Shown here: piece after piece, positions 14,492 to 16,982 of the stretch
How the letters are laid out: the number at the start of each line of letters is the position of its first letter
Position numbering within the stretch: position 1 is the stretch's first letter
Sequence record: SRR31156797_2750
DNA length: 23,317 nt
Strand: one strand, 5' to 3'
Notes under the pieces: generated by a model
Database searches by the model: none
What the model saw: the letters and a program-made list of their open reading frames with translations, nothing else
Told to the model about the DNA's origin: nothing
Program-made: the position numbers and the translations under genes

Positions 14492-15189
14492 CTAAAAACG
14501 GCTCCAAACCAAGAAAAGGACAAAAAGACTTATTCCTGTTGTCAAGACGGCATACGCACGTTTCACCCGAAGGGCCATTAATCCACCAAGAGTGGCTGCA
14601 ACCCAGAGGTGTGCCCATGTAATATCAATGGATGTAAGAAAACCAGGATACACAGAAAAAAGGAGCTGCATACATTGTTTGATGACAAGGATAGCAATAA
14701 AAAAGGATAAACCTGACATGACAAAAGTACGTGCCAGGGATTTCATAATCAATGTCGTCGGCAAATTTTGTATTTCAGGATTGCGTGCCCAATTTAACAA
14801 TCGATTATAGCTCCCCTGCTCTTGGTCACGAATCATCATTTCAACTCGTGTGCCAAGCCATGCGAGCGGCATACTGGCAAAGAGTACACCCATAATTCGG
14901 GCTGGGTGCTCCAGACCAAAAAACGTTGTCAGGGAAAGCGCTGAAAAAGTTGCAGCCGTCAAGTGTGGTGGAATAAATGTTCCGACGGGTATGAGATCGA
15001 GCCACAAAAGCTCAAAAAAAATGGCGATGTAAAGACTCGTCGTATAATCGCCGCTAAAAGCTCCCCAAAAAAGACCAATGACAAGGGGACGCTCAAGAAG
15101 TCCTATGCTGATTGAATATCTAAACAGGGAGAACAGGGCAAAAAAAAAGCGACCATGGCAAACCATGCGAACGGGTTATGAACTATCAT
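14492..15189 (-). CDS. Mannose/sorbose-class PTS IIC-like membrane protein; SD-equipped start is out of frame with the body (T9 run at 15140-15148)
   Basis: Body (ORF 14492..15166) has LLERPLVIGLFWG...FFELLWLDLIPVGTFIPP, typical of EII-Sor IIC. The likely start is ATG 15189 (ATGA overlap with the IIB stop, GAGGT SD), which needs a -1 shift to join the body. Confidence 0.75.
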
Positions 15190-15650
15190 GATTCAAACCT
15201 CACCTGAACAGGGTCATTGGGAACACATCTGAAATCGAGTTTCACACCTTTTCGGTTGAGAAGTTTGAGACAGTTCTCGTCCTCATCCGACAATGCGACA
15301 CTCGGAGAAATTTGTTTTTTACCAGGGCTGTAATGGACATTGCCAACATTTAACACATCAAAATCAAAACCGGCTTCATAGGCTCTTTTTGCGTCTGCAC
15401 AACTAGAGAACAGAATTATAATCTGTTCTCCGTCGAATCCGATTTGGTTGATGGTATCGTGGAGAGCTTCAACACTGACAAAAGAACTATCCACGGTTTG
15501 TGGAATGGCTAATGACATTATTTCCTGTTGCAAGATATCACGAGATAATTCGTCATTGGCAACAACGACTTGTTTTGCTCCAGTATAAGGAAGCCAAGTC
15601 TCAATGATCTGGCCGTGAATCAGGCGGTTGTCAATACGAACAAGAATCAC
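15186..15650 (-). CDS. Mannose/sorbose-class PTS IIB
   Basis: RIDNRLIHGQ phosphorylation motif, VVVAND, LNVGN. Confidence 0.93.
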   Translation of the reverse strand: MILVRIDNRLIHGQIIETWLPYTGAKQVVVANDELSRDILQQEIMSLAIPQTVDSSFVSVEALHDTINQIGFDGEQIIILFSSCADAKRAYEAGFDFDVLNVGNVHYSPGKKQISPSVALSDEDENCLKLLNRKGVKLDFRCVPNDPVQVRFES

Positions 15651-15659
15651 GGCACTACC

Positions 15660-16097
15660 TTATTTCTTCGTTTTTTTTCGAAGCATTGCGCCCGCAACTT
15701 TAATACCCTGCCGTCCAGCGGTTTTTACTTTTTCGGCCAGAGCATTCAAATCCATTTTGCGTGATTGCAAAGTTGCGACCAACATTGGCAGGTTAACGCC
15801 AGTGATGACTTCAAGATTCTCAGACTTCATGAGAGAAAGACTCATGGTGGTGGGTGAACCGCCAAACAAATCTGTCAAAGCCACAACGCCCTTTCCGGTT
15901 TCGACCGTCTGTATAGCCTTCCTGACGGCCTCCATGGTCTCGTCTACACTTTTTTCGACATCAATTCCCACAGCCAAACAGTTTTCCTGTTTGCCCATGA
16001 CCATTTTTGCCGCGTCAAGCAGAGTGTCCCCGAATGTTCCGTGGGTTACCAAGACGATGCCAACCATTGCATCTTTTTTATCTGACTTTGATGCCAT
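15660..16097 (-). CDS. Mannose/fructose-class PTS IIA
   Basis: IVLVTHG, LTDLFGGSP, VITGVNLPML. Confidence 0.93.
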   Translation of the reverse strand: MASKSDKKDAMVGIVLVTHGTFGDTLLDAAKMVMGKQENCLAVGIDVEKSVDETMEAVRKAIQTVETGKGVVALTDLFGGSPTTMSLSLMKSENLEVITGVNLPMLVATLQSRKMDLNALAEKVKTAGRQGIKVAGAMLRKKTKK

Positions 16098-16100
16098 TAT

Positions 16101-16982
16101 TTATCCAAGTTCCATATGTCGGTGTTCAATCGAAACAGTATACCCTTTTTTCTTCAGGGTCGCCAGTACGGACTCTCCCACTGAAACCGACCGATGTCGA
16201 CCCCCAGTGCACCCAAGGGCCAAGGTTATCCTGTATCGCCCTTCATCGGCATACAAGGGGAGCATATAACTCAAAAAATCAAGAAAACGTTTTTCAAATT
16301 CACTCCCTACATCACTTTCAAGAACGTATTGAGCGATGGATTTGTCCATACCGGAAAGTGACCTGAGTTTTTCGTCAAAATAAGGATTAGGTAAAAAACG
16401 TAAATCAAAAACCAAATCGGCCTCTGACGGCACTCCGTATTTAAATCCAAAGGAAATGAGATGCACACGCATACCACGGCCCACTTCTTCTATTGCAGAC
16501 CATTTAGTTTGAATTACGCGTCGAAGGTCGTGAATTGAATAATTTGTTGTATCAAGAACTAGAGCAGCACCTGTTCGAACTGGATCAAGAAGTTCTTTTT
16601 CCTGTTCGAGCGCCTGTTCAAGTCCAAGATTCTTACTTTCAAGGGGGTGTGGCCGACGAGTTGTGGCATAGCGCCGAACGAGTTCGTTCATCCGTGCTTC
16701 AAGGAACAATACCTGCGGAGTAATTCCTAATTCGTGAAAATCCCGCAAGGCCTGAGCCCAACCGTCCACAAATTCAAGCTGCCGCAAATCCATACCAAGG
16801 GCGAGGCCTCTATATTGGGAATCAAATTTTAAAATAAGGTCCGCAATCTTGGGTGACATTTCCGAAGGCAATCCATCAATACAAAAAAAACCCAAGTCCT
16901 CAAAAACATTAAGGGCTGTACTTTTTCCTGATCCGGAAAGCCCGGTCACGATGACAACGGGGAATGAATTGGAAGGCGTCAC
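16101..16982 (-). CDS. rapZ: RNase adapter RapZ (YvcJ/YhbJ)
   Basis: [42 protein letters not shown]; canonical position in the rpoN operon. Confidence 0.96.

Follow-up and report, generated by a model that had tools for sequence, protein, structure and literature searches.

A conserved out-of-frame T9 run is a probable programmed recoding site in a phosphotransferase system IIC gene

The stretch of DNA analysed here (23,317 bases from sequence record SRR31156797_2750, hereafter the window) carries a gene for a divergent IIC subunit of a mannose-family phosphotransferase system (PTS). The locus is read on the minus strand, and all coordinates are those of the full stretch. The IIC coding sequence is divided between two reading frames that meet at a run of nine T's (T9), and the comparison of related loci makes it very probable that this run is a programmed recoding site, by either transcriptional or ribosomal slippage. 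The run is found in the same place and with the same length in 119 of 125 related species genomes, which is far beyond chance. The variation among related genes switches frame at the run, and relatives that naturally lack the frame break have the two parts fused. With less assurance, we consider that the recoding is probably mainly transcriptional, i.e., due to slippage of RNA polymerase.

Two reading frames that meet at the T9 run

The start codon of IIC, placed from the sequence and the list of open reading frames (ORFs), is an ATG at 15187..15189 that overlaps the TGA stop codon of the IIB gene (15188-15186) as ATGA. A Shine-Dalgarno (SD)-like GAGGT was found by direct reading 7 nucleotides (nt) 5' of this start, within the end of the IIB gene (15197..15201). 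The frame set by the ATG (frame 0) encodes M I V H N P F A W F A M V, followed by the first two bases of an Ala codon (15149..15189), a segment supported by third-position entropy and by a shared motif. It then enters the T run, which is exactly nine bases long (15148-15140) and lies between GC and GCC. The frame-0 ORF has 28 codons (MIVHNPFAWFAMVAFFLPCSPCLDIQSA) and is closed by a TAG at 15105-15103, and its unslipped product would be a 28-amino-acid (aa) hydrophobic peptide. The body of the protein is in the -1 frame, in an ORF of 224 aa at 15166..14492 (MVCHGRFFFALF...). The part that begins at the run (14492..15148), FFFALFSLFRYS... to the stop codon at 14494-14492, matches the Pfam family PF03609 with an E value of 3.8e-12. 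A -1 shift or one added U gives 14 + 3 + 215 = 232 codons; that is, the two overlapping frames can be joined into one protein by a single added base.

Frame 0 reads the run as NNU UUU UUU UUG, which constitutes an in-phase X_XXY_YYZ heptamer in the window as in every one of the 119 T9 loci. The frame change of -1 is assigned to this run from the sequence, its conservation, and the Logan contig of X1 (the run from which the DNA probably came), which crosses the site as T9 with 0 gaps and a word depth of 103. No other A/T run of at least nine bases is present in the window. The frame-0 stop codon of the other T9 loci lies 16-126 nt past the run start, most commonly at 40 nt, and the predicted unslipped peptide has 26-36 residues in most loci. 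Several shorter A/T runs were observed in the window: a minus-strand T8 within IIC (15021-15014), over a conserved I-F-F-E motif, and four more runs of 8 bases at 2067-2074, 2524-2531, 15671-15678, and 16883-16890, the third of which is the Lys-rich end of the IIA gene.

The original prediction, made from the letters of the window, had described most of this anatomy, and every detail that it gave proved correct. Re-reading of the minus strand bore out the ATG with its ATGA overlap, the GAGGT 7 nt upstream, the closing TAG, the T9 with its GC and GCC flanks, and the in-phase heptamer, and a -1 shift gives 232 codons for the predicted product of about 232 aa, with its body in the -1 frame as the ORF list also has it. 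The prediction had also seen no convincing downstream hairpin, and the structure test of related loci described below likewise gave none that was conserved.

The run within the class and the homologous loci outside it

The gene was detected by protein search in 38 of 41 relatives and in 254 of 301 genomes of the class, which consists of a single order; 58 of its 69 genus codes had a match. The 5' end of the gene was read in 125 species genomes, comprising the loci returned by the search, 8 order-level matches, and 60 further matches that were chosen by genus code for spread before their sequences were seen. These genomes represent 45 genus codes and 8 families. The run was T9 in 119 of them, T10 in 2, and T8 in 1, and 3 genomes had no run. 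All 8 sampled families have T9, as do 42 of the 45 genus codes, and it persists in loci whose proteins share only 28-31% identity with the window protein (L111-L115). In all 119 T9 loci the start codon is in the frame that needs a -1 change to reach the body. It is ATG in 104, GTG in 11, and TTG in 4 loci, and it is located 35-62 nt before the run in all but one of them, in which a codon at -14 was picked. An SD core is present 4-16 nt 5' of this codon in 85 of the 119 loci.

All six exceptions are in frame from ATG. The run has been lost in three of them (L070, L085, and L093), which read in frame, and a fourth (L022) has a T8 with one extra base just upstream and is hence also in frame. The proteins P0006, P0007, P0011, and P0017 are relatives of L022 and form a small in-frame clade with it. 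The two T10 records are considered below with the alternative explanations.

Metagenome contigs were scanned with a pattern able to match T7 to T12. The scan gave 14 matches, comprising 13 true sites, every one of which was T9, and one chance match (L155). One match among genome contigs was in a Vibrio record (L169). Outside the class, a homologue was found in 88 of 387 other genomes of the phylum sample. The best 16 of these out-of-class loci are all in frame from an ordinary start codon and have no run. Because the class keeps T9 and the loci outside it are in frame without a run, the site arose at about the root of the class and has since been kept.

Selection on the nucleotides of the run and RNA structure

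The codon usage of the gene points to selection on the nucleotides of the run. Overall, the share of TTT among the Phe codons of the IIC bodies is 0.517. In 25 loci with a GC content of at least 0.60 its share is 0.275, giving a chance of 0.02 for three TTT codons in a row, yet T9 is present in 25 of 25. The ninth T is kept in 119 of 119 T9 loci, including these GC-rich loci, which prefer TTC. A second conserved Phe-Phe motif in the same gene (FFE, the one with the T8 at 15021-15014 in the window) served as a control, and its T runs vary from 2 to 8 (88 loci). The flanking sequence, 157 kb in all, contained no other A/T run of nine. In the 3.8 Mb of the GC-rich genome G100 there are only six A/T runs of at least nine. 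These comprise the IIC site and five others (L175-L179), at least two of which lie beside terminator-like GC hairpins.

Conserved RNA structure was not found in the 60 nt downstream of the run (mean z 0.03) or in the 40 nt upstream (mean z 0.22), and the alifold consensus was empty. A terminator-like hairpin before the run was considered and rejected, as it is not conserved. No upstream SD-like stimulator of frameshifting was seen in the consensus. The site shows neither a conserved downstream hairpin or pseudoknot nor a conserved upstream SD-like element, by which a stimulated -1 frameshift site would be recognized. Such a stimulator is usual for -1 ribosomal frameshift sites but not obligatory.

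Frame of selection and position of start codons

Positional entropy was calculated from 32 distinct sequences of genus g1 over the 24 nt before the run and the 45 nt after it. Among the three codon positions, the third one of the ATG frame is the most variable before the run (entropy 1.04 versus 0.62 and 0.39), and the third one of the body frame is the most variable after it (1.31 versus 0.47 and 0.25). The same switch of frame, although weaker, is seen when all lineages are used. No selection is visible on the frame-0 tail past the run in the positional variation of genus g1. Dual coding of this tail was rejected because the variation after the run tracks the body frame alone.

The position of start codons was examined in the same loci. 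The stretch of the body frame that separates its upstream stop codon from the run is free of ATG, GTG, and TTG in 78 of the 119 T9 loci, and in L037 a TAG in the body frame directly abuts the run. The first body-frame start codon downstream lies 3 to 80 codons past the run start. Translational reinitiation after the frame-0 stop codon was rejected because of this variable distance.

The IIC protein and its public records

The body encoded in the window matches the Pfam profile EII-Sor (PF03609) from profile position 10 onward, with a score of 46.6 bits for a cut-off of 26.3. With the NCBIfam models for IIC, both equivalog and subfamily, the scores were 15-30 bits, far below the cut-offs of 278-340. 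When the PDB sequences were searched with a profile built from six in-frame relatives, no chain was matched. The W-F-A-x-V motif of the frame-0 segment is common to the natural in-frame proteins P0006 and P0007, and a comparable N-terminus is fused to the body in P0006, P0007, P0011, and P0017.

The fold was modelled with AlphaFold on the in-frame relative P0007, not on the window protein, using an alignment of 50 homologues. The model has a mean predicted local distance difference test score (pLDDT) of 90 and contains one continuous helix at residues 7-28 that extends through the site of the run. In a Foldseek search, ranks 1-10 of the PDB matches were all taken by mannose-family PTS (man-PTS) structures (probability 1.00, template modelling score 0.49-0.61, 226-253 aligned columns), with E values of only 0.01-0.06. 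The fold predicted for P0007 is therefore ManY-like. Because its helix 7-28 crosses the run position, the frame-0 segment is predicted to encode the first half of transmembrane helix 1, and an IIC protein begun at or after the run would have less than half of this helix.

Public protein records do not reflect the split. Of 17 that were read, 11 begin in the body frame, 1 begins at a codon further downstream, and the remaining 5 are of the natural in-frame type. The public models are often 224 aa long, starting from an NTG codon 18 nt before the run, and others have 196-202 aa from later starts; the model of P0001 appears to start at ATC. The names given to these proteins (P0001-P0120 and DVU1634) are 'PTS sugar transporter subunit IIC', 'membrane protein, putative', and 'hypothetical protein'. 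None of the public protein records examined is marked as frameshifted.

Transposon data from the model strain

Locus L088, which has T9 and an ATG 41 nt upstream in the frame that needs -1, shares stop and start coordinates with the genes DVU1633 and DVU1634 of a well-studied model strain. In a published transposon study (PMC10102598, Supplementary Table 5), the reads of DVU1634 track those of the IIB gene DVU1633. The normreads values given there for the wild type and for strain JW710 are 8.35 and 0.29 for DVU1633, 7.48 and 0.24 for DVU1634 ('membrane protein, putative'), 0.27 and 1.18 for DVU1632 (IIA), and 0.98 and 0.87 for DVU1631 (PMC10102598). The shared pattern suggests that the IIC body is functional in the model strain. 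The same study reports strong cofitness between PtsI and DVU1632 (IIA) when alternative nitrogen sources are used (PMC10102598).

As a separate observation from this table, insertions in IIB and IIC are over-represented about 8-fold in the library of the wild type and under-represented about 4-fold in that of JW710 (PMC10102598). Insertions in the rapZ-like neighbour do not have this background-dependent phenotype.

Proposed mechanism and alternative explanations

In the mechanism that we propose, translation would start at ATG 15189, coupled to the IIB stop codon, and would proceed through 14 codons into the T9. RNA polymerase would slip on the nine-base U:A hybrid and add one non-templated U, and the U10 mRNA would then be read normally to give the 232-aa full-length IIC. 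A -1 tandem slip of the ribosome on U_UUU_UUU may contribute. Only those decoding events in which one base is gained at the run would yield full-length IIC, and all others would stop about 10 codons past the run and give the 28-aa peptide. By virtue of this split-gene layout, IIC would be made at a low, set ratio to the IIA and IIB encoded by the same mRNA. We infer the slippage itself, the slipping enzyme, and the IIC ratio. The locus has what is expected of a candidate transcriptional-slippage site: an A/T run of hybrid length, overlapping frames that can be joined, and a conserved out-of-frame layout. The original prediction had proposed programmed recoding, ribosomal or transcriptional, and had named the retention of an out-of-frame T run by orthologues as its test. 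Orthologues in 119 of 125 class genomes and all 13 metagenome sites have retained it, and the proposal is supported by this conservation, by the frame switch, and by the fused in-frame relatives.

Several points weigh against this reading. Related genomes are non-independent samples, and polar effects on downstream genes could equally explain the transposon pattern; the other points are given here with the alternatives to which they belong. The run is also a canonical in-phase -1 heptamer, and therefore sequence alone cannot separate ribosomal from polymerase slippage. If recoding were programmed but mainly ribosomal, tRNA-Phe in the P and A sites would slip by -1 on the U_UUU_UUU of a U9 mRNA. 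The heptamer is in the correct phase in the window and in every T9 locus, and the conservation and the frame switch fit this explanation equally well. However, no conserved downstream hairpin or pseudoknot and no upstream SD-like stimulator were seen, and the heptamer needs only seven T's; the ninth could then vary synonymously, but each of the 119 loci has a T there. Nine is, moreover, the hybrid length at which polymerase slippage is efficient, according to PMC5009743 and PMC1088944. The former describes an RNA-DNA hybrid of 9-10 bp and high-efficiency slippage of bacterial RNA polymerase in vivo at runs of 9 A or T (PMC5009743). Polymerase is ranked above the ribosome because there is no conserved structure, all nine T's are kept, and nine is the length of efficient polymerase slippage. 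A mainly ribosomal mechanism is thus a real but lesser possibility.

The explanations that dispense with programmed recoding are far less probable. It is quite improbable that the 28-codon ORF encodes a separate leader or small membrane peptide and that IIC starts independently in the body frame. The body-frame codon 18 nt before the run is an ATG in the window (15166) and NTG in 64 of the 119 T9 loci (CTG 43, GTG 9, TTG 7, and ATG 5); public annotation takes it as the IIC start, giving the 224-aa proteins, with the 196-202-aa proteins coming from later starts, and weak independent initiation may occur there in those species. On the other hand, an SD core accompanies this codon in only 4 of the 119 loci, and NTG is absent from it in 55. 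Its frequency can be explained by frame 0, since the codon is composed of the wobble base of the preceding frame-0 codon and the TG of a conserved frame-0 Trp codon. The 78 loci without a body-frame start before the run, a substitution pattern before the run that fits frame 0 and not the body frame, the in-frame relatives that fuse both parts, and the loss of more than half of helix 1 predicted from the P0007 model for a start at or after the run all argue against independent initiation. Phase variation, which the original prediction had listed as an alternative, would require replication slippage between T9 (off) and T10 (on) in mixed populations. The run is a homopolymer in the 5' coding region, and T10 is recorded twice, in L023/L167 (one assembly) and in L021. 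A protein from a Logan-derived assembly (P0024) reads as a T7-like in-frame form, and the Logan contigs of the related strains X4, X5, and X8 end or begin at the run and do not cross it. The X4 and X5 contig records overlap by 30 bases (window 15124-15153), with no indel rows reported, and such breaks may reflect a graph branch at a homopolymer, low depth, or length heterogeneity of the DNA. Both T10 records, however, are probably homopolymer miscalls: P0001, which is 100% identical to the ORF of L023 and carries the same species name, is read in the T9 frame, and in L021 the frame is broken a second time, at a G7 run about 80 nt beyond its T10. A phase-variable tract would vary in length, with on and off states both common, whereas the same 'off' state is shared by 119 of 125 genomes and by every one of the 13 metagenome sites, and an out-of-frame T8 was not seen among the 125 class genomes and 13 metagenome sites. 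The near absence of length variants, and the nature of the gene, a housekeeping-type permease in an rpoN cluster and not a surface antigen, make phase variation very improbable indeed. An artefact, either a homopolymer miscall in the assembly, as the original prediction had also allowed, or a decaying pseudogene, is close to negligible. Homopolymers are error-prone in some sequencing chemistries, but the independent X1 contig has T9 at its depth of 103, the same state is found in 119 other genomes from many groups, and the body is under purifying selection across the class. Programmed recoding, probably mainly by RNA polymerase, is the reading that we retain.

Operon and gene neighbourhood

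The IIC gene is part of a minus-strand operon in the order hpf-like ORF, ptsN, rapZ, IIA, IIB, divergent EIIC, and DHH/DHHA2 pyrophosphatase. The putative hpf ORF (17995-17453) was read from the letters with no Pfam scan. Pfam matches identify ptsN, encoding IIA-Ntr (17450-17001), rapZ (16982-16101), and, 3' of EIIC, the DHH/DHHA2 pyrophosphatase (14399-13479). The mannose-family PTS IIA gene (15660..16097; PF03610, E 2.1e-25) belongs to the same operon, and the sorbose-family IIB gene (15186..15650; PF03830, E 3.5e-47) is directly upstream of IIC and coupled to it.

A gene for the fourth subunit is found elsewhere. In G001, the nearest genome to the window among the relatives compared, a IID homologue (PF03613, 262 aa) lies about 1.4 Mb from IIA-IIB-IIC. 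It is placed directly before the HPr gene and after bioB- and bioY-like genes (L117, G001:C1:2833293-2836793); the ORFs for IID and HPr in L117 are at 1453-2241 and 2291-2593. From these assignments, IIC has a putative role, with IIA, IIB, and IID as partners, in the uptake and phosphorylation of a sugar.

Comparison with known systems

To our knowledge, few recoding sites are conserved in bacterial genes that are chromosomal and non-mobile; known conserved cases include prfB, dnaX, and a handful of others. The slippage site most similar to that of the IIC gene is in mxiE of Shigella flexneri, where the run has nine T's. As described in PMC1088944 and PMC5009743, mxiE and also spa13 have a short 5' ORF with the start codon and a main ORF that overlaps it in another frame, with a U run at the overlap, as in the IIC gene. 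In mxiE, one non-templated nucleotide joins the frames and the longer functional protein is the slipped product (PMC1088944 and PMC5009743). The two differ in setting: mxiE is a plasmid-borne virulence regulator of one genus in which slippage is known, whereas the T9 site lies in a chromosomal transporter gene, inside the predicted first transmembrane helix, is class-wide (42 of 45 genus codes), and is a predicted slippage site.

The dnaX gene of Thermus thermophilus (tau/gamma) resembles the IIC gene in having a nine-base run of hybrid length in a cellular gene that needs no stimulatory structure, according to PMC5009743 and PMC1088944. In that gene, however, the unslipped mRNA gives the long product and the slipped mRNA the short one, and both are functional; the unslipped product of IIC would be a 28-aa stub without selection in its own frame past the run. 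With the dnaX-type -1 frameshifting of Escherichia coli, the T9 site shares a zero-frame X_XXY_YYZ heptamer and the -1 direction. It differs in that the E. coli site relies on A_AAA_AAG together with an SD-like element 5' of it and a hairpin 3' of it; no such element is conserved at T9.

The encoded protein itself is akin to mannose-family EIIC (ManY; PDB 6k1h, 8hfs, and 7vlx), as judged from its PF03609 match, the man-PTS structure matches, and the adjacent IIA and IIB genes. Unlike ManY-type EIIC, its sequence is very divergent, and IID is encoded elsewhere beside HPr. We know of no ManY-type gene that needs recoding. A description of the T9 IIC site was not found by full-text literature searches or in the accessible parts of the recoding surveys PMC3711429, PMC5009743, PMC1088944, PMC4066793, PMC2405797, and PMC3543383; the GeneTack cluster supplement of PMC3711429, which lay outside this search, may list the site.

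Implications

If T9 is a programmed recoding site, as is very probable, then almost all of the species examined in a whole class of sulfate reducers have such a site, and so, apparently, does a well-studied model strain. Genome annotations miss it and give truncated or mis-started IIC models; the site therefore offers a correction to hundreds of gene models. It would also provide a clean natural system in which slippage of the polymerase and of the ribosome can be compared on a plain T9. Moreover, it may offer a handle on how the level of the membrane part is set in a PTS that is linked genetically to nitrogen-source phenotypes, as reported in PMC10102598. A further reading, which we hold to be unlikely, is that T9 serves as a regulatory device. 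The U10 fraction, and hence the amount of IIC relative to the soluble IIA and IIB of this rpoN-linked PTS, would then track the nucleotide or energy state of the cell through elongation kinetics and nucleotide pools, and the 28-aa helix-1 peptide could be a small membrane regulator. If this were true, a nutrient-sensing phosphorelay would be coupled to transcription fidelity.

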